The position numbers were made by a program, and so were the translations under genes. Positions 14,831 to 45,358 of a stretch of DNA of 64,000 nt are shown here, piece by piece (position 1 is the first letter of the stretch; every line of letters starts with the position of its first letter). The DNA comes from Candidatus Acidiferrales bacterium (GTDB lineage Bacteria; Verrucomicrobiota; Verrucomicrobiia; Limisphaerales; UBA11358), in contig DATHQS010000357.1 in assembly GCA_035482455.1 (NCBI GenBank), positions 28,654 to 92,653 on the forward strand, given 5' to 3'. The notes under the pieces are model-generated. The model searched no databases. It saw only the letters and a program-made list of their open reading frames with translations, and was not told the origin of the DNA.

Positions 14831-14932
14831 ATTAACCCTCCAATACAAAGTTTTTTCTCATGCAATTCCCCTGTAAAACGAGGTGCGTTATTGAGGCGGT
14901 GTGGGGAACAGAACCGTTAAACCCAAAAAAAT

Positions 14933-19554: not shown

Positions 19555-20400
19555 GCCGCGCAATTTCCGGGCAATTTCCGCGCAACGTCCGACGCAACAT
19601 CCGGTGAATCATCCGCGCAATTACCGAGCAACTGCCGAGACGTGTCCGGGCAGTTGGCGGGAAACGTCTCACCAAACTCCGGTGAATGTTCGCGCCAAAG
19701 TTCGCACCAAAGTTGGCACGATGGTTCGCAAATGACTTGGTAATTACCGCCGCAGTCCACGCCGCAGTCCGCGCTGCATCCAGCGTGGTATCCGGCGCAG
19801 TATCCGCTGAATCATCCGGGCAATTGCCGGGTAACTTCCGAGCAGTGTCCGAGCAGTTGGCGGGAAACGTCTCACACAACGCCGGTGAATGTCCGCACCA
19901 TGGTTGCCGCAACGGCTCGCAGGCGACTTGGCAATTGCCATAGCAGTCCGCGCCGTAGATCACGCAGCAGACAGGTTGGCATCCACTGAGCAGTCCGCGC
20001 AGTGTCCGGCTTGGCGTCCGGGCAACATCCGATGAATCATCCAGAGAATTTCCGGGCAATTTCCGGGCAGCGTCTGGGCGATTTTTGCATGAAACGCGCA
20101 CCGGCCTGGAACTTTCCAGAGATTTTTCCAGTTTTTCCAATGGCAACGGCTTTTCCGTGGCAAGACACATTCCACGTTCGCGACGAGTCCACAAACATGT
20201 CTGCGTCCAGTCCGTGACCGAGACCCCATTTTGTCCGTGTCCGCACATAATCCGCGTTAACGATTTCTCCGCGACCTGACGGTGTCCAGTCCTCAAATTG
20301 ACCGCGAACACGGTTTACCCATGTCCAGCCTGGACCGCGCACAGTCCGAATTTTTGGTCAGTCCATGGCCTCATCCAGTCCGCGACCGCGACCGCAGTTT
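19555..20400. repeat. ~850 bp array of degenerate 11-bp phased repeats (consensus about gCAnTnTCCGn / cAGTCCG), organised in ~2.5 higher-order ~200-bp units
   Basis: One run reads caatttccggg caatttccgcg caacgtccgac gcaacatccgg tgaatcatccg cgcaattaccg agcaactgccg agacgtgtccg ggcagttggcg. A second run reads cgcagtccacg ccgcagtccgc gctgcatccag cgtggtatccg gcgcagtatcc gctgaatcatc cgggcaattgc. Long-range repeat 19601-19790 vs 19795-19960 vs 20025-20100. ORFs are open in several frames on both strands. Confidence 0.7.
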
Positions 20401-21963: not shown

Positions 21964-22068
21964 AACTATCAATTTTATTAATCATGCGCAAGGTTTTTCA
22001 AACTCTGCCGCGCCACTCCACCACATAGATTGACGCGCCGCAAATTCCCAAGCAAACTGCCACGCACA

Positions 22069-25000
22069 ATGTCCAAACGGTTTTTCACCAATGAAGGCGA
22101 GAACACGCTGCTGAAAAAATTTGCCGGCGTGTTCACCCATAACCCTGACATTGAAAGGTTTGACGCGCTTGTTGGTTATCTGCGCGCGTCCGGTTATTTT
22201 GCTCTCCGGCCCCATCTGGAAAAAGTCCCGCTCATCCGCATCATCGTCGGGATTGACGTGGACACCGAACTGGCCCGCCACCATCGCAAGGGGCTGCTCA
22301 TGCTGGGTGACGCCGATAAGACCTTGTCATTCGTTCGCGCCAAACTCGCGGAGGACGTGCAAGGAGCGCCCTACCGGCGCGAGATTGAGGAGGGCATCCG
22401 CCAGTTTGTTGCTGATGTAGCGTCGAAGCGCGTCGAAATCCGGGCGCACTCCACCAAAAAGCTCCACGCCAAGCTCTACATATTTCTGCCGACCGGCTTT
22501 TGCGAACACAAGCCGGGCGCGGTCATCACAGGCTCGTCTAACCTTACTGCCGCCGGTTTGGGTGTCGAGGATGCCGCCAGCAACTACGAGTTCAACGTCG
22601 TGCTGCATGACTACGACGAGGTTGTGTTTGCCAAAAATGAATTCGAAAAGCTCTGGGGCGAAGGTGTCTCTGTTCTGCCGGAGGCGGTCAAGGGTGTTGT
22701 GCGCGAAAGCTACTTGCGCGAAGACCTCACGCCGTTTGAACTTTACATCAAATTTCTCATCGAATACTTCGGCCCGGCCATTGATTACGACCCTAATTCC
22801 GAACGTGATATGCCCAAGGGCCGCAAGGCGTTGAGCTATCAGGGGGACGCCGTCAATGACGGCTGGCTCAAATTGCAAAAACACGGCGGTTTTTTTCTCG
22901 CCGACGTTGTCGGCTTGGGCAAAACCGTTGTGGCGACGCGCATCGCCAAGAAATTTTATTATCATAACGGGTTTCCCAATCATCGCTCCCGTATTTTGAT
23001 CATCACGCCGCCGGCCTTGCGCGAAAATTGGGAAACAGAAATGGAGATGTTCGGTCTGGATGATGCCGTCAAGATCATCAACAACGGCAGCCTGCATAAA
23101 ATCCGCGACCCGGAGAAATACGACCTCATCATCATCGACGAGGCGCACAAGTTTCGCAATGACACCGCCGACGGTTACGACCTGCTCCAGAAATTGTGCA
23201 AGACCCGCACCAAACATCGTTTGCCTGATGACGAGTTTGCCCGGAAAAAAGTTATCCTGATCTCCGCCACGCCATTGAATAATCGCCCCGCTGACATCCG
23301 CAACCAGGTCTTGCTGTTTCAGGACGGCAAGGATTCCACCGTCATCGGCAACCTCCAGCATTTTTTCGCGCAGCGCATCAAGGAATATCAGGTCGCAACC
23401 AATCCGTTGAAGACGCCCGACCGGCAGGTGGCTCATGCCGCTGTCGCACGCATCTACGAACTCATCCGCGAGCAGGTCGTGCAACCGCTCACCGTCCGCC
23501 GCACGCGGACCGACCTCGTCGAGGATAAACGCTGGAAGGCCGATCTGGACGCGCAGGGCATCATTTTTCCCAAGGTGGAAAAACCCACGCCGATTCTTTA
23601 CCAGCTTGATGATGGCCTCGGTGTGCTATACGACCGCACCATTCAACTGTTGGCCTTCCCTGACTCCGGCGGTCTAACCTACAACCGCTACCGCGCAATC
23701 GCGTTTCTCTCCACCCTAGAGCTGAAGCAGAAATACGAACGTGCCGACCTTGTTGCTACGCAGTTGGCGCGCATCATGAAGACGATGCTGGTTAAGCGTC
23801 TGGACAGCAGTTTTATCGCGTTCAAAAAAAGTCTTGGCCGGTTCCGCGATGCCACGCAGGCGATGCTCACCATGTTCGAGCGCGGTAATATTTACATCGC
23901 GCCCAGCCTGCATGTCTCGGATTATATTTTAGAAGACCGCGAAGACGAACTTATCGCGGCCATCGCCGAAGCCAGCGAAACCGACCCAACGATCACCGCT
24001 TGCACGCCCAAAGATTTCAAACCCGAATTTCTCGACGGTTTGAAACACGACGGTAAAATTCTCGACGAGTTGGTTGCAGCCTGGGAACAAGTCCAAGCCG
24101 ATCCAAAATTGGATGAATTTCTTTCCTGCTTACGCGGCGAGGGCAGCCGTCCCAATCTGCTCACCAAGCCGTTCAATGAAACCGGCAAGCTGGTCATTTT
24201 TTCTGAGGCACGTGACACCACGCGCTATTTGACGGAAAAACTCAACGCTGCCGGTTTCGGCCCGGTGCTGACCGTGGATTCCCACAACCGCAAAGACGAA
24301 ATGCCCAAGGTCCGCGCGAATTTTGACGCGAACGTCGCCATTGGCGATGCCTCCAACCGTAGGGATGATTTCCACATCCTCATTTCCACAGAAGTCCTTG
24401 CCGAAGGAGTGAACCTCCATCGCGCCCATGTTATTGTGAATTATGATACGCCGTGGAACTCCACGCGCCTCATGCAGCGCATTGGCCGCGTCAACCGCAT
24501 TGGCAGCACTGCCAAGGCCGTCCACATTTTCAATTTCTACCCCACCACCCAGGTCGATGATGACATTGATCTCCAGCGCAAGGCGTTTCTGAAATTGCAG
24601 GCGTTCCACACCGCGCTCGGTGAGGACAGCCAGATTTATTCGCCCGACGAGGAAGTCGACAACTTCGGCCTGTTTGACCGCGCCATTGAGGAGGAGCGTG
24701 ACGAACGCCTCCGGTTCCTGTCCGAGTTGCGGGATTTCAAGGACGCGAACGAGGATGATTTCCGCAGGATTCGCAATCTCCCGCTTCGTGCCCGTTGCGG
24801 TCGGTGTGACGCAACCCAGACCGGCCACACGCTTGCTTTCATCCGCGATGACCGTCGTGATGCTTTTTATCGCATTGCTGCTGAACTTCAGGAGATTGGT
24901 TTCGTCGAAATGGCCCGGGCTTTCCGTGCCGAAGTTTCCGAATCGGCGGCCCCGTTGCCCGCCACGCACCATGAACAGGTGCTAGACGCGTTGGAGGATT

Positions 25001-25386
25001 TCCGCACCAAGCTCGCCGCCGATGCCGTGCGTGAACGGGCCGTGGACCACACCGCCGGTCCCAATGAGCAAAAGGCCATGCGTCTGCTGGCTGCCGCGCA
25101 GGGGATGCCCAACGTCTCCGCTGCCGAAAAAGCCCTGCTCGTCGCCGCCCAGCACGCCATCCGCGTTGCCAAATTTCAAGATCTGTCGCGCAAGCTCAAC
25201 GCGCTCCAAAAAGCTGTCGTCAAAAAACCGGTCACCACCGCCGCGCTCCTGGACAAGCTTTTGGAGATCATTCGCTCATACCCGCTTGATGTGGCCGAAC
25301 CGGATGCCGATGCGTCCGAAACACCTGTCGTTGACCATCGGTTTATACCGCATATCATACTGTCGGAATCTTTCACCACGAAATGA
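22069..25386 (+). CDS. PLD (single HKD) nuclease domain fused to an SNF2-family helicase/ATPase
   Basis: LHAKLYIFLP...VITGSSNLTAAGLG (HKD/GSxN, about 22456-22560). SNF2 motifs LADVVGLGKTVVA, LIIIDEAHKFRN (about 23127-23160), LISATPLNNRPADIRNQ, STEVLAEGVNLHRAHVIVNYDTPWNSTRLMQRIGRVNRIGS. The stop overlaps the next start (ATGA at 25383-25386). Confidence 0.9.
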   Translation: MSKRFFTNEGENTLLKKFAGVFTHNPDIERFDALVGYLRASGYFALRPHLEKVPLIRIIVGIDVDTELARHHRKGLLMLGDADKTLSFVRAKLAEDVQGAPYRREIEEGIRQFVADVASKRVEIRAHSTKKLHAKLYIFLPTGFCEHKPGAVITGSSNLTAAGLGVEDAASNYEFNVVLHDYDEVVFAKNEFEKLWGEGVSVLPEAVKGVVRESYLREDLTPFELYIKFLIEYFGPAIDYDPNSERDMPKGRKALSYQGDAVNDGWLKLQKHGGFFLADVVGLGKTVVATRIAKKFYYHNGFPNHRSRILIITPPALRENWETEMEMFGLDDAVKIINNGSLHKIRDPEKYDLIIIDEAHKFRNDTADGYDLLQKLCKTRTKHRLPDDEFARKKVILISATPLNNRPADIRNQVLLFQDGKDSTVIGNLQHFFAQRIKEYQVATNPLKTPDRQVAHAAVARIYELIREQVVQPLTVRRTRTDLVEDKRWKADLDAQGIIFPKVEKPTPILYQLDDGLGVLYDRTIQLLAFPDSGGLTYNRYRAIAFLSTLELKQKYERADLVATQLARIMKTMLVKRLDSSFIAFKKSLGRFRDATQAMLTMFERGNIYIAPSLHVSDYILEDREDELIAAIAEASETDPTITACTPKDFKPEFLDGLKHDGKILDELVAAWEQVQADPKLDEFLSCLRGEGSRPNLLTKPFNETGKLVIFSEARDTTRYLTEKLNAAGFGPVLTVDSHNRKDEMPKVRANFDANVAIGDASNRRDDFHILISTEVLAEGVNLHRAHVIVNYDTPWNSTRLMQRIGRVNRIGSTAKAVHIFNFYPTTQVDDDIDLQRKAFLKLQAFHTALGEDSQIYSPDEEVDNFGLFDRAIEEERDERLRFLSELRDFKDANEDDFRRIRNLPLRARCGRCDATQTGHTLAFIRDDRRDAFYRIAAELQEIGFVEMARAFRAEVSESAAPLPATHHEQVLDALEDFRTKLAADAVRERAVDHTAGPNEQKAMRLLAAAQGMPNVSAAEKALLVAAQHAIRVAKFQDLSRKLNALQKAVVKKPVTTAALLDKLLEIIRSYPLDVAEPDADASETPVVDHRFIPHIILSESFTTK

Positions 25387-28300
25387 ATTTAGCCGACTGC
25401 CAGGCCCAGTTTCAAAAAAAGTATTCACTGGAAAACTGGCGCGTCCTGTTGCCGCAATTGTTGCCCGGCGTCGCGCTCTTTGCGCAACCCCAGGATTATC
25501 CGTTGACCAATGACCGTGAGCGTAGCATCGCCACTGCCCGCCGCCAGTTCGGCGCGGCCACGCTCGCCGATGGCAAGCGCATTGCTTTTTACGAGATTGA
25601 TGTCGCCGCCAAGGTGGACTTGCTCCGCAACCGCGTCGCCCTTCGCGAGATCGTCGCCCGCTGTATTGACGAAGTCAGCGCGCACACCGTGCTCGCGTTT
25701 TTTGTCCATCCCGACAAGCCCGTTTACCGCCTGACCTATGCCGCCAAGGAAAGTCGGGTCGGTGACGACCTCAAAATCCACACCGGACAGACCGCCACGC
25801 GCCGGTACACCTACGTGCTGGGGCCGGGTGAAAGGCGCCGCACCGCCGCGTTGCGGTTGACTGCGTTATCCGAAAAGCGCGACACGACCGGGCTGAAGGA
25901 GGTCACCGACGCCTTTTCCGTCGAGAAGATCAACCGCGAATTTTTCGACACTTACAAGTCGCACTACCAGAAATTTTGCGACCATCTGCTCGCTGGCGAC
26001 GCACCGGCCAAGGTTTTCAAACTGCCACTGCGGGGTCTGGCGGATGAAGCCCGCGACCACACGCTGAAGCCGGTGCGCGACTTCGTCAAAAAGCTGTTGG
26101 GCCGCCTTGTCTTTCTTCATTTCCTCCAGAAGAAAGGCTGGTTGGGTTGTCCCGCTAATGTGACCCCTTGGAAAAACGGTGATCCTGATTTTCTCCGCCA
26201 GCTTTACACCACCGCGCCCGTCACCGACCTGCAACGGTTCCATTCCCGCCGCCTCGTGCCATTGTTCTTTGACACGCTGAACCGGCGGCGAAAAGATGAT
26301 TTATTTTCCATCACCGGCACCCGCGTCCCGTATCTTAACGGCGGTTTGTTTGAGCGCGATTTTGACGGCGTGGAGCAGATTGATTTCCCCGCGGAATTGT
26401 TCCACGACGTGCTGGAATTTTTCGGCCAATACAATTTTACCATTGATGAGAACGATCCTGATGACCACGAGATCGGCATTGACCCCGAGATGCTCGGGCA
26501 CATCTTTGAAAACTTGCTGGAAGATAACAAGGACAAGGGCGCTTACTACACGCCCAAGGCCGTCGTCCAATACATGTGCCAGCAGAGCCTCATCCATGCG
26601 CTCATCGGCCATTTTCCAAGTGACCCCGTCGCCCGCACCGAAATCGAAAAGCTCATCCGCACCAAGGAACCCATTGATGCCCGTCAGGATTCCTGGCTCG
26701 CCCGGCATGCCACGCAGTTGACCAAGGTTCTTGAAGATCTTCGCATCTGCGACCCCGCCATTGGTTCCGGCGCGTTTCCCATCGGCCTGCTTCAGGAGAT
26801 TTATTGGACCAAGCTCGCCATAAATTCCGGCCTCGACCGCGCCAAGGCCAAGCGCGATATCATCCAAAATTCCATTTTTGGCGTGGATATTGACGCTGGC
26901 GCCGTGGAAATCGCCCGGTTGCGTTTCTGGTTGGCGCTCATCGTTGAGGAAAAGAGCCCCGTGCCGTTGCCCAACCTCGATTACAAGATCATGCAGGGTA
27001 ATTCCCTGCTGGAAAGTTTTGAGGGCATTGACCTGAGCAATCTTACTGGCAAACAGCGCAAAGCCATCCAGTTGATCGGCACGGAGCAGACGGAACTGGG
27101 CCTCAAGACCGTCTCCACCGAACTGACCATCGAGTTCGCCGAGGGCAAGCAAGCCGAGATCACCAGCCTCATCGGCGGCTACTTTGGTCAGGACGATCTG
27201 GAGCTGAAACAAAAGTTGCATGGCGAGATTGATGACCTCGTGCTTGGCCACATTGAATACAATCTGGATTTGCATGAGGAACGGATTGAGGCGGCGCTCG
27301 ATAATGCCCGCAAGGAACTCAAACGCAAGCAGGCACGCGCCCGTGGCTACGAACCTACCAAGCGGGAGGCCGGCCGCATTGCCGAACTGGAAGCACAACT
27401 GGCTGAGGTGGACCGCAAGCGGGCGGCACTGGCGGAATTGCAGGAAAAACCGGAACGACCATTCTTTCTCTGGCACCTGTATTTCCAAAATGTGTTTGCT
27501 CGCGGCGGGTTCGATATCGTCGTAGCCAATCCGCCTTACGTCCGGCACGAGGCAATCAAGGATCAAAAGGCCGCGTTGCAAGCCGCGCCTTACGAATGTT
27601 ACGACGGCTTCGCCGACCTGCTGGTTTATTTTTACGAGCGTTCGGTAAAACTACTGCGTCCCGGTGGCGTGCTGACTTTCATCACCTCAAATAAATTTTA
27701 CCGCGCCGGTTATGGCGAGAAACTGCGCGGTTTTCTTGCCCGTGAACTAACCCTGCACCGGCTGATTGATTTTGGCGACGCACCCGTGTTCGAGGCCATC
27801 GCCTATGCCTCCATTCTCGAAGGAACACGCGCCGCGCCGTCTACTGACGCCTCGGCACGGATTTACACTTGGGGAAAGGGAATGCCCCTCGACAGTATTG
27901 CCTCCGTAATTGGGTCGCACGGCCAGCCAATTCGCCAAGACGAGCTCAAGCCAGACGGCTGGCGGCTTGAATCACCAATAGTGCTTCGTCTTCTCGCCAA
28001 ACTCCGCGCAAACGGCACGCCGTTAGGTGAGTATGTGAAAGGGTGTTTGTATTATGGAATCAAGACCGGCCTCAACGCAGCATTTATTGTAGATCGCGCC
28101 ACGCGCGACCAGCTCATTGCCGAGCACTCCTCGTCGGCACAGCTTTTGAAGCCTTGGCTTAGGGGACAAGATATTGACCGCTGGCAGATTTCCCCCTCAG
28201 ACCTTTGGCTGATTTTTCCGCCCCGAGGAACGGACATCAACAAATACCCTGCTATCAAAGGCTATTTAAATAAATTTAAGGAACAACTTTCACCAGGAGT

Positions 28301-29570
28301 TGACGGTGGCCGAAAGCCTGGCGATTATGAATGGTTCGAGATACAAGACAATGTTGCATATTGGCGTGAGTTCAAAACGCCAAAAATTGTCTTCCCAGAT
28401 ATTGCCAAGAGTTCTGAATTTGCTTGGGACAGTGGTGGCCATTTTGTCGGCAACACCGGCTATATACTTCCAACGCAAGATAAGTGGCTGCTCGCTGTTC
28501 TCAACTCATCGGCAGTTTTCTGGTTTTACCTCAATGTTAGCAACTTCATCCGGGGCGGGTATGTGCGGTTTATTAGGCAATATGTTGAAACCATTCCCAT
28601 CCCCACCACGACCGCTGCGGACCATACGGAGTTAAGCGCCCTCGTTGACCATATCCTTACGGCGAAGCGCGCCGGAGACGAGGAGACGGTGCATCAGTTA
28701 GAACACGAAATTGACGCGCACGTTTTCCGGCTCTACGCCCTCACGCCGGAAGAGATAAAGCTGGTGCAGTCCGTCCATGTCGAATCGGTTTCCGACAACC
28801 CGAAGTCCAACCTGTTCAACCGCGAGCAGCCCGAACTCAAAGCGGTGTCACCTTACTTCACCAACGCTGATCGCACCGCAATTTACGACCGGGTACTGAC
28901 CGAACTCAAAGCGTCGTCCCCCTATTTCACCACCACCGCCATCACCCGCCGCGCACAGGAGTTGGATCCTGAAATCAACCTCGACTCTTTGGCTGTGTAT
29001 CTCTCTGGGGTTACGGCCAATGGTTTGGTTCATGATGCTGGTCGCGGCTGGTATTCCGGATTGAGCAATCCCGTGCCGCTGGATGCCAAGCCGGTCGTCA
29101 AACTCATCCGTGCCGTCGAAAAGGCGTTCCCGCTGCTGGAGTTCACCGTCTGGTCCACCGCGCAAATCAATCCCTGGATGCACCACCTGCTCGCTCAGCC
29201 TGTCACGTTCCTTTACGCCCCGGCGGACACCCTTGAATCCGTCGGCGACACCCTCCGTGAACAAGGCTGGGAAATCGCCCTCGACCCCGGCAAGAAGGAG
29301 GGATCGAAACTGGTTCGCCCCGGCGAGAAAATGCTGGTCTTGCGCCCCACCCATTCCAAACAGCCCGCCCCGGCTGGGCGGCAGGCCAAAATCGAGCAAA
29401 TCTTGGTGGATTTGCAGCTCGAAGCCGGGCGCTTGGCGCTCATGGATACCTCCGAAGCCCAAGGTGTCATTCGGGCAATTTTGGGCCAATATCTTGTGCA
29501 AGTGGCTGAAATGAAGACCTATGCAGACTTTAGAACACTTAAGTTAAATGATTTAGAAGCACTTAACTAA
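25383..29570 (+). CDS. 1395-aa N6-adenine DNA methyltransferase (Eco57I/type IIG-like, TaqI-type C-terminal specificity domain) with an extra C-terminal ~250-aa AbiEi-like module
   Basis: Motif I ICDPAIGSGAFPIG, motif IV VVANPPYVRHE (NPPY at 27528-27539), TRD-like GTPLGEYVKGCLYYGIKTGLNAAFIVD. The C-terminal tail (about 28800-29567) contains FTTTAITRRAQEL..SLAVYLSGVTANGLVHDAGRGWYS and IEQILVDLQLE. Confidence 0.85.
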   Translation: MNLADCQAQFQKKYSLENWRVLLPQLLPGVALFAQPQDYPLTNDRERSIATARRQFGAATLADGKRIAFYEIDVAAKVDLLRNRVALREIVARCIDEVSAHTVLAFFVHPDKPVYRLTYAAKESRVGDDLKIHTGQTATRRYTYVLGPGERRRTAALRLTALSEKRDTTGLKEVTDAFSVEKINREFFDTYKSHYQKFCDHLLAGDAPAKVFKLPLRGLADEARDHTLKPVRDFVKKLLGRLVFLHFLQKKGWLGCPANVTPWKNGDPDFLRQLYTTAPVTDLQRFHSRRLVPLFFDTLNRRRKDDLFSITGTRVPYLNGGLFERDFDGVEQIDFPAELFHDVLEFFGQYNFTIDENDPDDHEIGIDPEMLGHIFENLLEDNKDKGAYYTPKAVVQYMCQQSLIHALIGHFPSDPVARTEIEKLIRTKEPIDARQDSWLARHATQLTKVLEDLRICDPAIGSGAFPIGLLQEIYWTKLAINSGLDRAKAKRDIIQNSIFGVDIDAGAVEIARLRFWLALIVEEKSPVPLPNLDYKIMQGNSLLESFEGIDLSNLTGKQRKAIQLIGTEQTELGLKTVSTELTIEFAEGKQAEITSLIGGYFGQDDLELKQKLHGEIDDLVLGHIEYNLDLHEERIEAALDNARKELKRKQARARGYEPTKREAGRIAELEAQLAEVDRKRAALAELQEKPERPFFLWHLYFQNVFARGGFDIVVANPPYVRHEAIKDQKAALQAAPYECYDGFADLLVYFYERSVKLLRPGGVLTFITSNKFYRAGYGEKLRGFLARELTLHRLIDFGDAPVFEAIAYASILEGTRAAPSTDASARIYTWGKGMPLDSIASVIGSHGQPIRQDELKPDGWRLESPIVLRLLAKLRANGTPLGEYVKGCLYYGIKTGLNAAFIVDRATRDQLIAEHSSSAQLLKPWLRGQDIDRWQISPSDLWLIFPPRGTDINKYPAIKGYLNKFKEQLSPGVDGGRKPGDYEWFEIQDNVAYWREFKTPKIVFPDIAKSSEFAWDSGGHFVGNTGYILPTQDKWLLAVLNSSAVFWFYLNVSNFIRGGYVRFIRQYVETIPIPTTTAADHTELSALVDHILTAKRAGDEETVHQLEHEIDAHVFRLYALTPEEIKLVQSVHVESVSDNPKSNLFNREQPELKAVSPYFTNADRTAIYDRVLTELKASSPYFTTTAITRRAQELDPEINLDSLAVYLSGVTANGLVHDAGRGWYSGLSNPVPLDAKPVVKLIRAVEKAFPLLEFTVWSTAQINPWMHHLLAQPVTFLYAPADTLESVGDTLREQGWEIALDPGKKEGSKLVRPGEKMLVLRPTHSKQPAPAGRQAKIEQILVDLQLEAGRLALMDTSEAQGVIRAILGQYLVQVAEMKTYADFRTLKLNDLEALN

Positions 29571-36316: not shown

Positions 36317-36500
36317 AACGAGTTACCTGCTGGGTGGCGGCATCGTGGAAAAACTTGGGATTGAACGCTTTATGCCCTGATTCGATTTTTTGGCGCGGCT
36401 CAATTATCTTTGAATGGCTATGGTGGGTTGGACAGCCTTTGTCCAACCGGCTTTGAGATGATTGTCAAAAAGCTTTAAAAGCACGAAATGCGGCAATAGA

Positions 36501-37538
36501 ATGAAAACCATGACAAAATCGGACCCAGACACGGCGAACTTATTTTCCGAGCACGGAACTGGGACGACGATTCTGCTGAGTGACGATATTTTCACGATGG
36601 TGCAAAACCAGCGGCTGATTGTGGACGGCTTTGAAAAAGGCTGCCTGCAATCGACGTCATATGACTTTCGTATTGGGAAAAAGGCTGTTGTTGGCGGGCA
36701 GGGCTGCGAGGTGGATTTGGAGTCCAAGCCTTTGGTTATCGATCCAGGGTCATACGCGGGCGTCATCTCCTATGAAAAAGTCAAATTGCCAAACAACGTT
36801 TTCGCCCAGATCGGATCGAAACGGAAATTCTCTTACGATGGTCTGATTCTCCTCACGGGCTCTGTAATTGATCCGGGATATGAAGGCTATTTATTGTTCG
36901 GCCTTTATAACGCCTCAACTAAAAAGGTCGTTTTGCCCAAGGGAACCAAAATTTGCAACGTGATTTTTACACGGCTTCCGCGGGATGTGAGTCCGGTGTC
37001 TCCTGACCCGTATCTCCTGATGGGAAATTGTCCGCCTGATTTTTTAACCCGGATGGCCAATGTCGAAGTTCTCCCCTGGAATAAAATCAGCGAGGAAGTG
37101 CGGCGTATCCAGGAACTCGCGCAGGCCATCCTCGACTTGAAAGTTCAATACAACGACGTTCTGGAGCCGATCAAAGACTTGACCAAAAATGTCAACAAGG
37201 TGAATTCAGATGTTGCGCTACTGACTGAACAAATCAGGGCGGTTGGAACACAAGTGAGCAAGCTTGATCAGTTCAGTGAGAAAAACGCCCAGCTCGTCAA
37301 CGAAATCGCCGTCAATGTTAAGACGCTCAGCACCAAGGTTGGCGACCAGGACAAAGAATTGAGGGACGTCAGCACCAAGCTTGGAAGTTATGGCCTTCTT
37401 GTGAAAATTGCTTGGGCCATCGGATTGGTGATGGCGGGCATTTTGATAAAACAATATCTGGATAAACCAGCAGTCAGTCCAAAGGAAGCGCCAAAAGTTT
37501 CGGCTCCTGCCTCAGCTCCCGTCCCGTCGAAACCATGA
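36501..37538 (+). CDS. dCTP deaminase/dUTPase-fold domain fused to a coiled coil and a C-terminal transmembrane anchor
   Basis: STSYDFRIG, VIDPGSYAGVISYEKVKLP, GSVIDPGYEGYLLFGLYNASTKKVVLPKGTKICNVIF (about 36864-36960) align by eye with Dcd/Dut motif III. A heptad-like region follows (NVNKVNSDVALLTEQIRAVGTQVSKLDQFSEKNAQLVNEIAVNVKTL), then a TM helix LLVKIAWAIGLVMAGILIKQYL (about 37393-37460) and a Pro/Ala/Ser tail. Confidence 0.7.
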   Translation: MKTMTKSDPDTANLFSEHGTGTTILLSDDIFTMVQNQRLIVDGFEKGCLQSTSYDFRIGKKAVVGGQGCEVDLESKPLVIDPGSYAGVISYEKVKLPNNVFAQIGSKRKFSYDGLILLTGSVIDPGYEGYLLFGLYNASTKKVVLPKGTKICNVIFTRLPRDVSPVSPDPYLLMGNCPPDFLTRMANVEVLPWNKISEEVRRIQELAQAILDLKVQYNDVLEPIKDLTKNVNKVNSDVALLTEQIRAVGTQVSKLDQFSEKNAQLVNEIAVNVKTLSTKVGDQDKELRDVSTKLGSYGLLVKIAWAIGLVMAGILIKQYLDKPAVSPKEAPKVSAPASAPVPSKP

Positions 37539-38648: not shown

Positions 38649-39524
38649 TCACAACGATTCCGCCATGGCGATGGTTTCAAACTCCGAACAGATTTCCGGA
38701 TGGTTGGCGTTCAGATACCGGACGACCTTCCCGTTCTTGAGCAGGTTTTTGACATAGGTTTGCGCCGTTTGCAGGGTGAACATGTTTTCCGTGTAGGTAT
38801 CCGTGACGGCTTTTAATTCCCGTTCCAGCGATTCCATTTCACTTTCCATCCGGGCGATGTCCTCCGCCGACATGCCGGCTTTTCGCTTCGGCTCATCCGG
38901 GTTCACTAACTGATGCTTGGGCGTGCCCAGGACCATGGCCTCGGCGTAGCCGACAACGTAGTTGTTCATCGCGACCATCATTTCCGCCATTTCAATCTGC
39001 CGGTTTCCATTCACGCTCTTGAACAGCCTCAGGGCTTTCGGACAGATGTTTTTGTCTTTCAATAATTCGGCCGCGTCCGGATGAATCCCTTTGAGCAGGT
39101 TGATGGAGGCTTGCACCACCCGCAGCGGCATGTTCAAAACCACGGCCAGCCGCTCCGGGCTGACGCCGTTGTTCACAGCTTTGACGATCATCTTGTGCTC
39201 CTGGATCGGCGGCAACCGGCTAATGCGGGCGTTGTAGGTGTAGCACTCGTCATCCGTGGCGATGATGCAGTCGGCTTCGGTTTTGCCCAAATCTTTCAGG
39301 GCAAAATAACGGAGGTGCCCGTTTTTCAGCATATACTTTCCCGGCGCATCTTTTTGCGGATAGACCACCAACGGTTCCACCAGACCCATGTCTGGAATGG
39401 AGCCAAGAATCGCCTTGAACCGATAGGTCTCCTTATCCACCTCTTTAACTAGGCGCATTGGTAGGATGTCATCCAGCGGCAACTGGATTTTCCGCAGTTC
39501 AAAGGCAATTTTCGGTTCACTCAT
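38649..39524 (-). CDS. ParB/Srx N-terminal-domain protein (ParB-like 1)
   Basis: GLVEPLVVYPQKDAPGKYMLKNGHLRYFALKDLG (ParB box with GxxR). The start overlaps the upstream gene's stop (ATGA at 39521-39524). Confidence 0.75.
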   Translation of the reverse strand: MSEPKIAFELRKIQLPLDDILPMRLVKEVDKETYRFKAILGSIPDMGLVEPLVVYPQKDAPGKYMLKNGHLRYFALKDLGKTEADCIIATDDECYTYNARISRLPPIQEHKMIVKAVNNGVSPERLAVVLNMPLRVVQASINLLKGIHPDAAELLKDKNICPKALRLFKSVNGNRQIEMAEMMVAMNNYVVGYAEAMVLGTPKHQLVNPDEPKRKAGMSAEDIARMESEMESLERELKAVTDTYTENMFTLQTAQTYVKNLLKNGKVVRYLNANHPEICSEFETIAMAESL

Positions 39525-40408
39525 GCTGTTTGTTTGATTTGGGGTGAAAGTTTGACCGACAAATATTTTGGCATCGTCGCCAGGCCTTCGGCTCGTAACA
39601 GCGTGCCGAAATTTTCATCCGCCAGCAGCTTGTTGAAGCCCGTCACAATAAAACCCAGCTTGGCATCACACACCTTCGCCTTTTTGATCATCAACTTCTG
39701 TCGCTGGCTCTCCTTGCGGTACGAATTGACCATGCTTTCCATGCTGGTCTTGGGTTTGGCGTCGGATGACTTGCCGCCACGCTGCTTGCCAATCAGTCGC
39801 CGGCTCTCGATTAGCCCTTTGACGTATTTCAGGGATTTGTAGTCGAGCTGCTTTTCCTCGTAGGCTTTCAGCAGTTCGCGCTGGGTCTCCAGCGTGTCGG
39901 TCTTGGCAATGTCCACCGCGATCCACAGGGGAATCTTTCCGGTGACGGCGGCCTCCAGCAACCGCTCCTCGCCCGCGTTGCTCAGGCTCGAATAGGCCCG
40001 GACCAGGCTGTCGCTCACGTCCAACTTTTCGCTGATTTCTTTGATTGTATTGCCCAAAGCCTGCAACCGTTCGATTTCCCGGATCAAATCCATTGGCTTT
40101 GGATAACGCCGGGCGATGTTTTCCACGAGGCTGCGGACCAGCAGTTCCTGCTTTGTAATTTCCGAAACAATGGCCGGTATTTCTTTATGCCCGAGCGCCC
40201 GGAAGGCTTCCATCCGTCCCTGTCCGCAAATTAAATCATATCCGGCCACTTCATGCTCGCTCGCGTGGCGGCGGCTGACTTGAATCGGCATTTTCAGGCC
40301 AACATTTCTGATGCTCTTGATGATGATCTCAAACTTTTTCGGGTCTCGATGACGTGGATTGACCACGCGGATTTTCTCAATGCGTATCAATTCGATTACC
40401 TCACTCAT
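39521..40408 (-). CDS. ParB/Srx N-terminal-domain protein (ParB-like 2) with HTH
   Basis: IRVVNPRHRDPKKFEIIIKSIRNVGLKMPIQV...YDLICGQGRMEAFRALGHKEIPAIV. The preferred ATG at 40408 overlaps the recombinase stop (ATGA at 40405-40408). Confidence 0.75.
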   Translation of the reverse strand: MSEVIELIRIEKIRVVNPRHRDPKKFEIIIKSIRNVGLKMPIQVSRRHASEHEVAGYDLICGQGRMEAFRALGHKEIPAIVSEITKQELLVRSLVENIARRYPKPMDLIREIERLQALGNTIKEISEKLDVSDSLVRAYSSLSNAGEERLLEAAVTGKIPLWIAVDIAKTDTLETQRELLKAYEEKQLDYKSLKYVKGLIESRRLIGKQRGGKSSDAKPKTSMESMVNSYRKESQRQKLMIKKAKVCDAKLGFIVTGFNKLLADENFGTLLRAEGLATMPKYLSVKLSPQIKQTA

Positions 40409-41952
40409 GCGAGTTCCTCCAGCTTCACGCGTTCCGCCATGCCGAAGAAACAATCCAATGTGTCAAACCGGTAGGTATCCAGACAAATGCCGTTGGCCTC
40501 CGCCACCCGGAGGTTTTCCCAGGTCATATCCAGCCCCGGCAGCACATAGTAATCGCGGATGCCCTCATTCGCGGCATCCATCCGCACGGCAATGGTGACG
40601 TCGGGTCGGGCGCTGGCATCCAGCCGGATAAGCCAGCGCGACGAACCAGTGCCCGTTTCCGTATGCCGGCACAGCACGATCGACACGCGCATTTCACCGT
40701 TTAGCTCCAGCAATTCAGTTGCGTCGTTCCAGACAGCTTGCGCTCCCAGGTCAGAAATCTTCTGGACCACTTCGGCCACCAACTCCGGGTGACGTTTCCG
40801 CAGCCGCCGGTTTTCTTCGATGAAGCTGAAATCAATCCCGGGGTCGTAGCCGATAAGTTTGTAAGCGCTGACGAGGGTTCCGAAGCGATGCCGAAACGCC
40901 GTGCTCGATGGCAGGCCTTCCGCTTCGTCTATCAGGATGCCCGAGATGCGTCCGTGTTTTAATAACACGGCACGCAGTTTTTCCAGCATCTCTTCATCGG
41001 TCAGCTTCTGGCTTCTTGCCAGGATGATTTCATGTGCCCGCCAGAACAGGTCCGGCTCCACGACGCCCTCAAAAGCGCCATCCGCCCGGATCCATTTGTC
41101 CGGCGGGTTGTTCACGTGCTTTTTCTTCAACTTGCACGAGGTCCGGTGATACACGTTGTTGCCGATGTATTTCTCATTGGTCAGGATTTGATGCACCGTT
41201 CCCCGGTTCCATTCCCGCCCAAAATCAGTCTTCACGCCCTGCCCATTGAGGATGGTTGCGATCTCGGATTCCATCTTCCCTTCATTGATAAATGACTCGA
41301 AAATCCACCGGACGATGATTGTTTCTTCTTCCGGCCCACGCACCAACACCACGCGGTCGGTCTGGATGCTTTTTTGTTCACCCATCTTGAGCGTCGCCTT
41401 CCGTTCTCCGCTCTGGTCGATCAGCATCCGGCGCAAGCCGAACCCCGCCGTCCCGCCTTGCTTGTAACCGAGTTGGATCAACCGGCACGCGCCTTGAAAC
41501 ACCTTTGAGGACAGCTCACGGCTGTATTCGCCCGCCATGGCCCGCTTCACGCCCTTGACGATGGTGGACACCGGACTGCCGTCATTCTCAAATTGCTCCG
41601 CACAGTAGTGGACCGAAACGCCCGCCCGGCGGCAGATGTATTCGTAATAAGCGCTTTCATCGGCATCCTGAAACCTACCCCACCGGCTCACGTCATAGAC
41701 GAGGATGTTGGCAAACTCCGCTCGTCCTTCCTGGACATCTCGCAGTATTTGCGCCAGCGAGTCGCGACCTTGTATGTTTAGCCCGCTTTTGCCCTCGTCC
41801 GAATATTCCTTCACAATATTCAACTCGCGCCGCTTGGCGTATTCGCGGATCACGTCCATCTGGTTGCTGGTTGAATACTGCTGATGCTCCGTGGACATGC
41901 GCACATACACGGCGGTGCAGTTCGTCCATCGCTCTTGATTGGCCCGGCTCAT
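40405..41952 (-). CDS. large serine recombinase (resolvase/invertase N-domain plus recombinase domain)
   Basis: AVYVRMSTEHQQYSTSNQ (catalytic Ser block), ILVYDVSRWGRF, GVKRAMAGEYSRELSSKV, then a large C-terminal extension. Confidence 0.9.
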   Translation of the reverse strand: MSRANQERWTNCTAVYVRMSTEHQQYSTSNQMDVIREYAKRRELNIVKEYSDEGKSGLNIQGRDSLAQILRDVQEGRAEFANILVYDVSRWGRFQDADESAYYEYICRRAGVSVHYCAEQFENDGSPVSTIVKGVKRAMAGEYSRELSSKVFQGACRLIQLGYKQGGTAGFGLRRMLIDQSGERKATLKMGEQKSIQTDRVVLVRGPEEETIIVRWIFESFINEGKMESEIATILNGQGVKTDFGREWNRGTVHQILTNEKYIGNNVYHRTSCKLKKKHVNNPPDKWIRADGAFEGVVEPDLFWRAHEIILARSQKLTDEEMLEKLRAVLLKHGRISGILIDEAEGLPSSTAFRHRFGTLVSAYKLIGYDPGIDFSFIEENRRLRKRHPELVAEVVQKISDLGAQAVWNDATELLELNGEMRVSIVLCRHTETGTGSSRWLIRLDASARPDVTIAVRMDAANEGIRDYYVLPGLDMTWENLRVAEANGICLDTYRFDTLDCFFGMAERVKLEELA

Positions 41953-42068
41953 GTCATTTGTTTCGGTATTGTTTCAAGTTTTTGTGAAGCCTCCGGCCCA
42001 AAGCCGGCAGGCATTTTCATGATGGCAGAAGTGCGCGAGCGGTAACGATGAAATCTTTGTAGCGCAAT

Positions 42069-42341
42069 TTAGCATCGGCGGAATAAGGGGAATGTGCGTT
42101 TCCAATAGTAGGGATTGGCCTTGCGCCATATCCGGACTCGCTCCACCTCACCTGGTCCGCCCCCCAGTTTCCGATTCCCAGGTTTTGCCAGCCATTGCTT
42201 CTGGCTCAAAATCTTGCTGGCCTTGCGACAACGTGCCCGCGTGCAGAACCGTTGGTGGTGATGATTACGCGGATCGGTGGTGAACAAATGTTTGCAAGAT
42301 AAACATCTGCGACTGCTGCCGTTGCGGTGTGTGTGTTTCAT
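42069..42341 (-). CDS. small Cys/His-rich zinc-ribbon-like basic protein
   Basis: MKHTHRNGSSRRCLSCKHLFTTDPRNHHHQRFCTRARCRKASKILSQKQWLAKPGNRK... has a CxxC...C..C pattern. I prefer the internal ATG at 42341 over the track start at 42497. Confidence 0.45.
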   Translation of the reverse strand: MKHTHRNGSSRRCLSCKHLFTTDPRNHHHQRFCTRARCRKASKILSQKQWLAKPGNRKLGGGPGEVERVRIWRKANPYYWKRTFPLFRRC

Positions 42342-42490: not shown

Positions 42491-42715
42491 GTGCCACGGG
42501 ACGCCAAAATTCACGCTCAACTGAAGAAATTCGGCGCGAGTATCCGTCGCGAACGGACCGCCAAGGGCATTACACAGGAGAAACTTGCCGAACTGGTTGA
42601 TTTGAACATCCGGTCGGTGCAGAAAATCGAAGCCGGACAAATTAACGTTCTAGTGACAACGACGATGCGGATTCAGAACGCGTTGGACTGTCCTTGGGGC
42701 AAGTTGATGTCATGA
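42491..42715 (+). CDS. XRE-family HTH transcriptional regulator
   Basis: LKKFGASIRRERTAKGITQEKLAELVDLNIRSVQKIEAGQ. GTG start. Confidence 0.8.
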   Translation: MPRDAKIHAQLKKFGASIRRERTAKGITQEKLAELVDLNIRSVQKIEAGQINVLVTTTMRIQNALDCPWGKLMS

Positions 42716-42948
42716 GCAAAGTTTGGCTGTTTGCATTTGCATACCGAGCGTGCCTCGTGCCTCCATTATATGGCTCGCTCACGCCGTCAATGTAGTGCGC
42801 CCTGTCGCCCGTCGCCTCCACATTGACTGCGTTCGCTTCGCCAAGGGATGGCACTTAGGATTCACGCTCGGAGTCTGCATGTCTGGTTTTGAGAAATGGA
42901 TGGCGTAATGCTGCACCAGCAATTGCGGAAGTGGAAAGTCGGTCAAAT

Positions 42949-44100
42949 TTATTCGGCTGGCTTCAAGCGTGCTGGTTCTTCAAGAATGTCGAGCAATGCC
43001 TTGGCACAATAAACCCGGTCGCGTTTCGCATCACCCGATTGCTTTACAATTCCAAGTCGTTCCAGCCGCTCAATGGCGCGTTGCGCTGTGGTAAAAGCCA
43101 CACCGAGTTTTTCAGCCGCGCCTTTGGCGGTGATGAAAGGATTCGCGGCCAGGAGTTCCACCACGCGCAGTGGTGCATTCGTCGAATCACCGGCAACTTT
43201 CTTTTGCCATTCAATCAGCTTGCTATTGATGCGCGCCGCCCGGCTCAGCGCATCTTCGGACATCCGGGCCACGCCTTGCAAAAAGTATTCAAGCCATTCA
43301 TTCCACTCGCCACGTTCGCTGACGCCACGCAGCCCGTCATAATAATCCCGGCGCGCGGCTTCAAAAAATGCGGACAGATATAGCAGCGGTGTCGGCAAAA
43401 TCTCTCGCTCAATCAAGAATAAGGTAATCAGCAAACGGCCGACGCGCCCGTTGCCGTCCAAAAAAGGGTGAATTGCCTCGAACTGGTAATGCGCCAGCGC
43501 AATCGTGACCAGCGGCGGCAGGTCTGATTCATGCAGAAACTTTTCCCAGGCCGCCAGGCACGTTTCAACATCATCAGGCGGTGGCGGGATGAACGACGCG
43601 GTTGCCAGCGTGCTACCGGGCTTGCCGATCCAGTTCTGAATTTTGCGAAAGCGTCCCGGCGAAGCTTGTTGCCCCCGCACATCGGTCATGAGTTTCTCGT
43701 GCAATTCGCGGATGATGCGGACACAAAGCGGAAGTTCCTTGAGACGGACAATGCCATGTTCAAGTGCCACGACATAATTGCCAACCTCCCGCAGGTCATC
43801 GGGGCTGCGATCCACGGCTACACCGGCCTCCGCCGCCAGCAATTCGCCCAATGTCGCTTGCGTGCCCTCAATCTTGCTGGACAGCACGGCCTCGCGTTGC
43901 AGAAACGGACGCATCAATATGTGCGGATTGGGCAGGCGCCCGCCTTCGCCGGCCAATTTGCCGATTAAACGGTCGGCGTCTGACAGCACGCGGATCAACC
44001 GGGGCGTCCAATCGAGCTTCGGCGGCAGAGGCGCAGGCATAAAGGCCGCGTAGGTGCCTTGCGGCACTTTCTTGCCCGGAATGTTTGATTTGCTGGCCAT
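42949..44100 (-). CDS. Fic/DOC family protein (AMPylase-type) with N-terminal Fic_N and C-terminal wHTH
   Basis: Fic motif HPFLDGNGRVGR (about 43440-43478) and an inhibitory-helix-like SSKIEGT ([ST]xxxE[GN]) in the N-terminal region. Confidence 0.9.
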   Translation of the reverse strand: MASKSNIPGKKVPQGTYAAFMPAPLPPKLDWTPRLIRVLSDADRLIGKLAGEGGRLPNPHILMRPFLQREAVLSSKIEGTQATLGELLAAEAGVAVDRSPDDLREVGNYVVALEHGIVRLKELPLCVRIIRELHEKLMTDVRGQQASPGRFRKIQNWIGKPGSTLATASFIPPPPDDVETCLAAWEKFLHESDLPPLVTIALAHYQFEAIHPFLDGNGRVGRLLITLFLIEREILPTPLLYLSAFFEAARRDYYDGLRGVSERGEWNEWLEYFLQGVARMSEDALSRAARINSKLIEWQKKVAGDSTNAPLRVVELLAANPFITAKGAAEKLGVAFTTAQRAIERLERLGIVKQSGDAKRDRVYCAKALLDILEEPARLKPAE

Positions 44101-44198
44101 CGGTTACTTTCGATAATGAAAATACCACACGCCGTTATTTTCACAAAAGCTAAAAAACGATAATAGCGCACTTTGCTATTTTCGCAGTTGAAACCGTG

Positions 44199-45233
44199 TT
44201 AAGCCGCAAATTGAACCGCGTCCCGCCATTGCGCCACGTCCTCGACCTTCTCACGCTGGTAGATTTGATGAATCAATTCCGAGGCGTGATTGACCAGACG
44301 CATGGCCGCTTCACGCGGCACGCCCGCGCGACGCAACCGATTGACGTAGGTAACGCGCAGGCAATGGAATGTCAGATGCGTTTTCTTGATCTTGATGAAA
44401 AATTGCTGCCACCGCCGCGACGGTTGAAATGGGAATTCGACGGTAAATTTTTGTTTCGATTTGCGGATGCGTTCCAACAGCGGACGCAAAGCCGTCGGCA
44501 TCGGCACGGAGAACGCCCGATCTTCGCCGCCCTTGGGCGATGGGAACGTGATTTTATTTTCCACAAAATCAATGCAGTTGACCGGAATCCGCGTTTCACG
44601 CAACCGGCAACCGGTGTGCAGGGAAATATCAAAAGCCGTCTGCATCCATTCCGGTTCATCTTTCAACGCGGCCCGAATCTCGCTGATCTCGGCATCGGTC
44701 AATTCCGGCTTTTTAGCCGCCTTGTCCCGTTTCAATTTCATGCTCATCAGTGGATTGGCGTCGGCATGGCCAAGTCGCACCGCTTCACCCATGATCAGGG
44801 CAAATGTTTTTATTTCAAAAATCGCCGTGTTGCGACCAACAGTTTTGCCGGTTTTTTTCTTGTAGCTCGTGCGCCAGTCCAGATATTCAAGGGTGTTGCG
44901 GTAGGTGATGGCACGAGGCGAATGGTAGTGCTTTTCTTGCAGCCAGAACGCCAGCCATTTCCACGCATCAAGGTAACGCTCCAATGTGAGCGGGCTTTCG
45001 CAGTGCCGTTCCAAGTATTGCGGCACCCAGGAATCCCAATTGCCGCCCGTGATTTCGCCGGCAGTGCGATTGAGTTCTTTGGCTTCAAGCTGCGCCCGCA
45101 GGGCGCGCGCCTTGACGGTTTCGCCGGGATTGTCCGCCCGGAAGCCGGTGGATTTGTTGCGTCGTGTGCCGTCGGCGTCAATGAATTGAACAAACCAAAA
45201 CGGCGAGTTTTGCTTTTTATAAATGGATGCCAT
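44199..45233 (-). CDS. tyrosine-type site-specific integrase
   Basis: MASIYKKQNSPFWFVQFIDADGTRRNKSTG (phage-integrase SAM-like N-terminus), C-terminal FHCLRVTYVNRLRRAGV...LVNHASELIHQIYQR (H-x-x-R ... Y). The gene lies 95 bp from attR. Confidence 0.9.
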   Translation of the reverse strand: MASIYKKQNSPFWFVQFIDADGTRRNKSTGFRADNPGETVKARALRAQLEAKELNRTAGEITGGNWDSWVPQYLERHCESPLTLERYLDAWKWLAFWLQEKHYHSPRAITYRNTLEYLDWRTSYKKKTGKTVGRNTAIFEIKTFALIMGEAVRLGHADANPLMSMKLKRDKAAKKPELTDAEISEIRAALKDEPEWMQTAFDISLHTGCRLRETRIPVNCIDFVENKITFPSPKGGEDRAFSVPMPTALRPLLERIRKSKQKFTVEFPFQPSRRWQQFFIKIKKTHLTFHCLRVTYVNRLRRAGVPREAAMRLVNHASELIHQIYQREKVEDVAQWRDAVQFAA

Positions 45234-45238
45234 AGCCA

Positions 45239-45267
45239 GTGCAGTTTGTGCAGTAAGCTTACTGCAC
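45239..45267. promoter_or_regulatory. GTGCAGT(AA) repeats, two direct plus one inverted (arm-type site candidates, right arm / int promoter region)
   Basis: gtgcagtttgtgcagtaagcttactgcac sits immediately upstream of the integrase ATG. The same 9-mer occurs at 14811-14830. Confidence 0.5.
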
Positions 45268-45327
45268 AACATCGCGAAATGCCAGCAAATAAGGCTATTC
45301 CACACCACTTTACACCACTATGCCCGT

Positions 45328-45358
45328 GACGAGGGTTCGATTCCCTTCACCCGCTCCA
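45328..45358 (+). repeat. attR: 31-bp copy of the tRNA-Gly 3' end
   Basis: Exact match to 14755..14785. No upstream tRNA body is present, so it is a remnant or duplication created by integration. Confidence 0.9.

Follow-up and report, generated by a model that had tools for sequence, protein, structure and literature searches.

A large serine recombinase coupled to two ParB-fold proteins: proposed core of a widespread site-specific recombination module

Gene organization of the recombinase-ParB locus

The work described here concerns three adjacent genes in a 64,000-nucleotide (nt) stretch of DNA from Candidatus Acidiferrales bacterium (GenBank assembly GCA_035482455.1, contig DATHQS010000357.1, positions 28,654 to 92,653 of the forward strand), a genome placed by GTDB in the Verrucomicrobiota; this whole stretch is referred to below as the window. 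The genes are located between the integrase-Fic end of a tRNA-Gly island and approximately 24 kb of defence cargo with a TrwC relaxase. All three lie on the minus strand, and they encode a large serine recombinase of 515 amino acids (aa) (REC; 40405-41952, assigned from the list of open reading frames (ORFs) and from Pfam), a ParB-like protein of 295 aa as counted from its ATG (ParB2; 39521-40408) and a second ParB-like protein of 291 aa (ParB1; 38649-39524). Re-reading of the ORFs of the window gave the same coordinates, and the same two ATGA overlaps, as an earlier inspection of this DNA (the original prediction): the ATG of ParB2 overlaps the stop codon of REC and the ATG of ParB1 overlaps that of ParB2, both junctions reading ...gcATGAgtg... 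with a 4-nt stop/start overlap at each. The boxes ICGQGRMEAF and LKNGHLRYF, which had been singled out in the ParB-like proteins, are both present. The claim that the trio has no ParA partner also holds, as a search of the whole window in six frames, and of the 6 kb around the module in 77 other loci, found no ParA-type deviant Walker-A motif. In comparisons with NCBIfam profiles the trio gave sub-threshold matches only (to partition, Noc and RepB models, and to CcrB), and a sequence search of the PDB returned only generic ParB and serine-recombinase matches. No family in PADLOC-DB 2.0 was matched by REC, ParB2, ParB1 or the small ORF upstream of them that is described below.

Conservation and distribution of the trio

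When the trio was surveyed in other genomes, the co-occurrence of its members proved to be nearly invariant. In loci with enough upstream sequence or flank to be counted, the order REC-ParB2-ParB1 is colinear in 95 of 100, viz. 57 of 60 genome loci and 38 of 40 loci from IMG/VR. The REC/ParB2 junction shows an overlap of 4 nt in 77 and of 1 nt in 31 of 116 loci (108/116 for the two together), while the ParB2/ParB1 overlap is 4 nt long in 77 of 127 loci, most of the others being within 4 nt. Because these overlaps are kept across loci, the coupled co-expression that had been proposed for the window should be viewed as a conserved property of the trio and not as a local accident.

The distribution of the module is broad. 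ParB1 gave 1190 matches in a database clustered at 90%, corresponding to 207 clusters at 50% identity with E<=1e-30, and a scan of one genome per species identified at least 544 loci. The phyla and classes represented include Verrucomicrobiota, Planctomycetota, Alpha-, Beta-, Gamma- and Deltaproteobacteria, Acidobacteriota and Myxococcota, with at least 6 phyla in all. Many copies are chromosomal; many others are carried by megaplasmids and chromids, with 110 records in PLSDB, of which 70 are conjugative. In IMG/VR the module is present in 69 predicted proviruses, often at the very end of the provirus: in two contigs the REC gene begins at nt 55, and in four contigs ParB1 begins at nt 1. Just downstream of ParB1 in these proviruses are genes for tail proteins (Phage-tail_3, GpJ, Lambda_tail_I), a capsid protein and a protease. 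It is essentially absent from the sequenced phages of INPHARED. Overall, the downstream neighbours are a mixture in which defence-type helicases, nucleases, Fic and ThiF proteins are found together with housekeeping genes, and a Pfam census of them revealed no conserved fifth gene. One apparent arrangement was rejected: L031/L038 (loci are designated here by L numbers; contig JBAPQW010000022.1, 53277-94212) resembles a composite transposon in which two inverted modules flank 19 kb of DNA, and because the 41-kb region is a perfect reverse-complement palindrome, it is an assembly fold-back artefact.

The recombinase

By its sequence, REC is a large serine recombinase whose catalytic and recombinase domains are both intact. 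It matches the Pfam families Resolvase (PF00239, 9e-22) and Recombinase (PF07508, 8e-22, residues 209-310), its best PHROG match is annotated as 'integrase' (1e-54), and the residues R18, S20, D87, R90 and R93 are invariant in alignments of 16 cross-phylum and 58 further sequences. The identity of REC across phyla is 52-62% over the full length, with the C-terminal domain included. An AlphaFold model of REC, which is of moderate confidence (predicted local distance difference test, pLDDT, 66), was matched by Foldseek to the PhiC31, SPbeta and Bxb1 integrases over ~315-365 columns that cover the catalytic and recombinase domains only. The remaining part of the protein (residues ~300/311-515) is a conserved domain of about 200 aa, modelled as a helical bundle plus a beta domain. 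No PF13408 zinc ribbon, cluster of Cys residues, Pfam match or coiled-coil motif was found in residues 311-515, and the fold search gave no structural match for this domain, in a search in which the matches were dominated by N-terminal domains and the model was of moderate confidence. The zinc ribbon and coiled coil thus appear, on the basis of this model, to be replaced in REC by a conserved C-terminal domain without a recognised fold.

A separate observation concerns the 5' end of the REC gene. In L018, L019, L021, L022, L026, L030, L032 and L036, a mini-ORF located directly upstream of the full REC gene encodes only the first ~55-65 residues of the resolvase domain (e.g. ...AAIYVRRSTKHQQ...), and in L100, where the trio is absent, a remnant of such a mini-ORF is present at 2815-2985. 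Further, three longer recombinases (P0241-P0243) carry a fused, degenerate extra N-terminal resolvase domain with no catalytic Ser. These mini-ORFs and fused domains may represent either a scar of recombination at the 5' end of the gene or a regulatory fragment.

The two ParB-like proteins

ParB2 matches both ParB_N (1e-10) and PF07506 RepB (2e-10), and its boxes for the binding of cytidine triphosphate (CTP) have the canonical form, with GQGR as box II and ENIARR as box III; the ENxARR and GQGR motifs are conserved in 14 cross-phylum sequences. ParB1 is a stronger match to PF07506 (2e-34), and ParB_N is seen weakly in the window sequence, PF02195 being recorded for many close homologues of this protein. 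The layout of ParB1 comprises a ParB/Srx fold, a helix-turn-helix (HTH) and a helical C-terminus, and Foldseek aligned its AlphaFold model with Noc, ParB and KorB over ~200 columns (E 3e-9); the N-domain of the model also matches sulfiredoxin. In ParB1 box II is kept as GHxR (GHLR in the window), whereas box III is replaced by an invariant DDExxTYNxR motif, and because of this replacement ParB1 lacks the catalytic Glu, which is the residue of box III that canonical ParB uses for hydrolysis. As judged from these motifs, ParB2 is predicted to be canonical and ParB1 degenerate. The two proteins are too diverged from each other to be aligned by BLASTP. NCBI names both of them 'RepB C-terminal domain-containing'. 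A repeat scan of the region 36-46 kb of the window found weak, chance-level repeats only.

The original prediction had suggested that these proteins act upon an array of 11-bp repeats at 19.5-20.4 kb of the window. This suggestion was not borne out, as only 1 of 96 module loci has any array of period 9-13 within 10 kb, and the array was also rejected as the ParB target on the ground that the minimal 3.9-kb units carry no such array. The array itself (19540-20080) consists of dozens of copies of direct repeats of ~11 bp (unit roughly TCCGNGCAANN) with a higher-order period of 203 bp, and it is located ~1.2 kb upstream of the TrwC relaxase start, where it overlaps a 294-aa ORF with no Pfam match. 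Its helical-turn spacing suggests a protein-binding array of the iteron, centromere or oriT type.

A discrete unit in unrelated flanks

The trio together with a small upstream regulator or zinc-ribbon gene appears to constitute a discrete unit, which is usually 3.9-4.3 kb in length. Near-identical copies of this unit, each surrounded by unrelated DNA, occur in Agrobacterium, Rhodobacterales, Phycisphaerales and Verrucomicrobia. The region 38649-42297 of the window is ~81% identical to L008 and L011-13, whereas the DNA beyond the ParB1 stop codon is unrelated, and homology to L008, L009, L011-L013 and L017-L019 breaks off at 38648/38649. The cargo located 3' of ParB1 consists of a Bil/ThiF system and type I restriction-modification (R-M) genes in L008, of Mrr, DUF488, DuOB, type I R-M and ApeA genes in L011, and of HNH_2 and a Schlafen-type helicase in L004. 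At this point, where the conserved block ends and the variable cargo starts, a right-end motif GGCGGAATCGTTGTGA (38649-38664, minus strand) overlaps the ParB1 stop codon. On the left, the boundary proposed for the unit is a 28-bp core, CAGACATGCAGACTCCGAGCGTGAATCC (42858-42885, minus strand), which is common to eight module-bearing loci with at least 5 unrelated left flanks. In L112 the order glnD-tRNA-Gly-Fic-core leads straight into housekeeping genes, with no module.

Similar relationships are seen in other lineages. L049 and L068, which belong to two genera, are 90.7% identical over 4.0 kb comprising only the module, and the homology between L076 and L086, and between L008 and L017, is likewise limited to the module. 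A longer unit of 7.8 kb, made up of the module and one cargo gene, is common to three Rhodobacteraceae genera (L042, L044 and L046); the cargo gene is a 1163-aa ORF (L042 11179-14670, also in L044 and L046) with no Pfam match and 90-92% identity at the DNA level. A GCGGAAT motif, related to the right-end motif of the window, is present at the right ends of the Agrobacterium and the L049/L068 units; as judged by eye, units from Verrucomicrobia, Rhizobiaceae and Rhodobacteraceae have a GAACC-containing motif at their left ends and GCGGAAT at their right ends.

Short sites at the ends of the Agrobacterium units

The ends of the unit are seen most clearly in Agrobacterium, where the region 3056-6959 of pAtC58 (an HTH-like gene and the trio, 3.9 kb) is 96.9% identical to pAtEML4 in unrelated flanks. 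A copy of an imperfect 29-bp direct repeat lies at each end of this unit, in the same orientation on both sides, with the consensus CGCCTTGA-N6-TCGAACC-N-TCGGCCC. A single copy of the 29-bp site is present at the same breakpoints, with different DNA beyond, in five module-less plasmids (L098, L099, L250, L251 and L252) that share one or the other flank of the unit. The scores of a position weight matrix (PWM) for the site are 24-41 at these places, in comparison to 8.5 in shuffled DNA. The sites are located at 3057 and 6939 in L001, 40808 and 49219 in L180, 9053 in L098, 4393 and 5987 in L099, 2803 in L250, 2504 in L251 and 2803 in L252. A synthetic empty-site query constructed for pAtEML4 found the two flanks at separate places, and no contiguous empty site.

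These sites make up a dispersed 29-bp motif of Agrobacterium At plasmids, which is always at the junctions of variable segments and often directly after AbiEii or Fic genes. The reverse complement of the site resembles a tRNA T-loop (GGTTCGAWTCC) followed by the 3' strand of the acceptor. The possibility that the site is itself a tRNA was rejected, as ARAGORN found none in L001 and most copies, examined by eye, form no proper T-stem. In pAtC58 the module lies within a defence island with Qat and Gabija-like genes, a restriction enzyme, Fic and AbiE.

Interpretation of the module

Based on these results we propose, with middling confidence, that the trio forms the constant core of a self-contained module for site-specific recombination, which drives the integration and excision of a widespread family of integrative elements. 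In the proposed mechanism, REC would exchange strands at the ends of the unit, while ParB2 and ParB1 together would form a hetero-oligomeric, nucleotide-gated DNA-binding accessory that supplies site recognition, synapsis or directionality control. The cargo, viz. defence genes and prophage DNA, would be located downstream of ParB1, either inside or beside the element, and the module would work alongside the tyrosine integrase of the island and not in its place. We propose that outer-site binding and directionality fall to the ParB pair because REC is without the classical domain for them and the ParB genes are so firmly coupled to the REC gene. The integration/excision reading fits better than the alternatives considered below because an intact recombinase of the integrase type, a position at the edges of elements, a recurring compact unit and short sites at its ends are found together; on this reading, the unit would be moved by its own recombinase.

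A number of observations weigh against this proposal. In the first place, the module is single-copy per replicon, and an exact empty site with both flanks conserved was not found; for the locus on a Pseudomonas aeruginosa megaplasmid the empty-site search was also negative, the whole 12.9 kb being specific to two plasmids. The left core has no second copy in the window, due to which the right end of the unit there is defined solely by the loss of homology. The recurrence of the trio and its small upstream gene in unrelated flanks fits the separate nested mobile module of the original prediction. Flanking direct or inverted repeats were searched for in the window, and in 17 loci by matching of the best windows, and the results did not exceed those of shuffled controls. 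The same is true of the Agrobacterium direct repeat taken by itself (21/28), and other lineages are without significant end repeats. Only two further copies of the 29-bp site were detected when the PWM was applied to 50 kb of pAtC58, both of them intergenic and at unrelated places. Because its reverse complement is T-loop- and acceptor-like, this site could instead be the target of a tyrosine integrase, or it could be a recombination-prone dispersed repeat. Further, the Verrucomicrobial islands possess their own tyrosine integrases beside tRNA genes, and in L011-13 the module is internal, with a relaxase and HipA upstream. Lastly, the ParB pair would be an obligatory accessory of REC on the grounds of linkage, motifs and fold only.

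A more specific form of the proposal, which is speculative and which we consider rather doubtful, is that these elements constitute a new class of mobile element in which a serine recombinase lacking the zinc ribbon is licensed or directed by a heteromeric ParB clamp, with one CTP-competent and one degenerate subunit. Loaded at or close to the element, this clamp would take over the role that the coiled coil and the recombination directionality factor have in classical serine integrases; the element would target short sites resembling the tRNA T-loop and would cause defence genes and prophage DNA to accumulate beside it.

Of the other explanations, the one that survives best, although it is unlikely, is that the module serves as a platform for the recruitment of cargo, capturing, exchanging or inverting cassettes at a site by the ParB1 stop codon and at dispersed short sites, similar to the ccr genes of staphylococcal cassette chromosomes (SCC) or to integrons, and thereby building the defence region. 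The cargo differs from the first base past the ParB1 stop codon even where the modules are 80-93% identical, the Agrobacterium site lies directly after the AbiEii and Fic genes with different far-side DNA in every plasmid, and Fic3 in L099 is bracketed by two of these sites. In addition, AbiE, Fic and the module are each found as discrete blocks in other plasmids, and related genomes differ in how Fic and the module are oriented with respect to glnD-tRNA-Gly. However, with merely one or two sites per 13-16 kb locus there is no cassette array, no repeated site is seen in the cargo of the window, and the downstream neighbours include housekeeping genes; a fast turnover of cargo is also common in defence islands without any dedicated recombinase. 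It should be noted that this explanation is partly compatible with the integration/excision reading.

A stability function, which we regard as quite unlikely, would have REC resolving the multimers of a plasmid or an excised circular island while the ParB pair condenses or positions the DNA with a ParA of the host or a helper, or with none. The many copies on megaplasmids and chromids are in accordance with such a function, as are the RepB-like Pfam matches of the ParB proteins and the relaxase of the window island, which makes a circular stage probable. However, ParA is missing from the 6 kb around the module in the 77 loci noted earlier, REC is of the integrase type (with a recombinase domain and the PHROG match) and is not a small resolvase, many copies are chromosomal and at provirus edges, the unit moves without a replicon backbone, and the NCBIfam scores for RepB and partition models are far under their cut-offs.

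It is improbable that the ParB pair acts as a regulatory switch, viz. as CTP-dependent regulators of the KorB, BisD or VirB kind that control the excision or transfer genes of the host element, with REC linked to them and serving a separate function. In favour of this, the matches of the ParB1 model include KorB and Noc besides ParB, an HTH gene in divergent orientation and a region resembling a promoter are located upstream, and the ParB-like protein BisD is known to activate the transfer genes of ICEclc (PMC12409273). However, the minimal 3.9-kb units hold nothing else to regulate, and the fact that translation of the pair is strictly coupled to that of REC in all these phyla suggests a single machine. 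That the module is itself an anti-phage or anti-plasmid defence system is very improbable: it does lie among defence genes in the window, L004, L008, L011, pAtC58 and Methylibium, but its three proteins match no PADLOC model and have no effector-like domain, its neighbours are often housekeeping or prophage genes, and mobile elements also gather in defence islands.

Relationship to known systems

REC shares with the serine integrases (PhiC31 Int, Bxb1 Int, SPbeta SprA, TP901-1 Int, TnpX and CcrA/B) the Arg-x-Ser and D..R..R motifs, a long helix E and the recombinase domain, and like them it is encoded at the edge of integrated elements; its best structural matches are to PhiC31, SPbeta and Bxb1. 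However, it differs from them in having the conserved helical and beta domain of ~200 aa in place of the zinc ribbon and coiled coil, and in its obligatory coupling to two ParB-fold genes, and we know of no serine integrase for which such a coupling has been described. Serine integrases are major tools for genome engineering, and their directionality is thought to depend upon the zinc-ribbon/coiled-coil domain and a separate directionality factor. The occurrence in hundreds of species of a recombinase that is without this domain, and that is linked to two ParB-fold proteins, points to a different control of site choice or direction.

With the ParB-CTPase family (ParB/Spo0J, Noc, KorB, VirB, BisD) the module has in common the ParB/Srx N-domain, the HTH and the C-terminal helical domain, as well as the GxxR and ENxxR motifs of ParB2, whereas the trio is distinguished by the lack of ParA, by tandem diverged paralogues, by the missing box III Glu of ParB1 and by having a recombinase as the partner. 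If the integration/excision reading is correct, recombination would join segregation, nucleoid occlusion and transcription control among the tasks performed by the CTP-switch fold, and ParB2 and ParB1 would provide a natural hetero-pair with one degenerate site. The parCBA multimer-resolution operon of RK2/RP4 also links a serine recombinase with proteins called 'ParB'; in RK2, however, the ParA protein is a small resolvase and the ParB protein an enzyme similar to staphylococcal nuclease, without the ParB/Srx fold, and the resemblance to the trio is in name only.

Both ParB proteins match PF07506 of the RepB proteins of repABC replicons, but they score only 38 and 17 bits against TIGR03454, for which the cut-off is 201.5, and there is no repA or repC in the annotated neighbourhoods. 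The ccr complexes of the SCCmec type are similar in possessing a large-type serine recombinase, and CcrB is the best NCBIfam match to REC, with scores and cut-offs of 64 bits and 900 for CcrB, 50 and 900 for CcrC, and 16 and 700 for CcrA. The SCCmec-type elements insert at a short regenerated site, beside which defence cassettes accumulate (PMC11470126). Unlike these complexes, the module has one recombinase and not two, it does not have the rlmH target, and its accessories are ParB-fold proteins rather than Cch, Pol and DUF proteins. Hence, the module is neither a ParABS system, nor a RepB of repABC, nor a Ccr complex, nor a listed defence system. Full-text searches of the literature found no description of the trio, and a 2025 survey of the ParB-CTPase fold, in which fusions with the RepB domain are reported to be common, does not mention recombinases. 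The module marks the constant border of a defence and prophage cargo that changes rapidly; it could help to explain how islands are assembled and moved, and it can be used as a search handle for new cargo.

Other parts of the module

The small gene upstream of REC, which is co-directional with it (42072-42341, minus strand), encodes a C4 zinc-ribbon protein of 90 aa (MKHTHRNGSSRRCLSCKH...) showing a CxxC...CxxxxC pattern and no Pfam match. It is kept upstream of REC in Verrucomicrobial loci, in L003, L051 and L081, and in some Beta- and Gammaproteobacteria. Between this gene and REC is a conserved leader of ~120 nt (41953-42071, minus strand) with a hairpin at 41989-42012, which is ~80% identical in L008, L011, L017 and L100. 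The predicted RNA fold of the leader is no better than that of shuffled sequences (z -0.8), and one recombination breakpoint is located in this region, at 41955-41992. An HTH_3 (XRE-type) regulator gene (42491-42715, plus strand) is divergent from the trio; it is missing at the same place in L008, L009 and L100, and the Proteobacterial and Acidobacterial units have a different divergent HTH-like gene of ~125 aa in this position. A search of Rfam and a scan for promoters and terminators gave nothing informative.

Island context and neighbouring observations

The island contains, in this order, tRNA-Gly(ccc) (14712-14785), the TrwC relaxase, an SDH-type protease, a PLD-SNF2 helicase, an Eco57I-like methyltransferase with DUF6577, AbiEii, a UvrD/GajB-like helicase, GmrSD-HNH, an Mrr-like nuclease, a dCTP-deaminase-like protein and HNH_2, and after these the module, a SoFic gene (42949-44100, minus strand), a tyrosine integrase (44199-45308, minus strand) and a 37-bp direct repeat of the tRNA-Gly 3' end (45322-45358, plus strand). 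SoFic and the integrase lie outside the module. The presence of the integrase and of this repeat was confirmed, in accordance with the tyrosine integrase for tRNA-Gly of the original prediction. In Verrucomicrobial islands, a tRNA gene is found 2-4 kb upstream of the module together with a gene whose product, at ~420 aa, has the size of a tyrosine integrase.

The glnD-tRNA-Gly locus, when compared between the window (14712-14855 and 42858-45358) and L008, L100, L101, L102 and L112, shows Fic and the module in opposite orientations to the tRNA in different genomes. In L101 the integrase-Fic pair and a 283-bp remnant of the relaxase are kept, and in L102 Fic is inserted directly beside the tRNA. 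The glnD-tRNA-Gly locus is a mosaic hotspot, and one insertion event by a tyrosine integrase does not account for its rearrangements. Fic-family (SoFic-like) genes are present within one or two genes of the module in both Verrucomicrobia and Agrobacterium (window 42949-44100; L001 6977-8158; L097 4453-5991; L099 4514-7206), and Fic genes form discrete blocks of ~1.3 kb in many plasmids.

Within the defence cargo, the gene for a fusion of a PLD nuclease and an SNF2 helicase (1118 aa) overlaps the start of that for an Eco57I/MmeI-like methyltransferase of 1395 aa, which carries TaqI_C and a C-terminal DUF6577, and a lone AbiEii comes next; this stretch (22030-29570) is possibly a composite restriction or defence system. 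At 36462-37538, a dCTP-deaminase/dUTPase-like domain is fused to a coiled-coil-like C-terminal extension of ~180 aa with a hydrophobic tail, and this fusion has a weak match to DruC of PADLOC only. Lastly, two exact copies of GTGCAGTAAAA are located at 14811-14831, directly after the terminator-like hairpin of tRNA-Gly, and it is at these copies, at 14827-14855, that the homology between related genomes ends.

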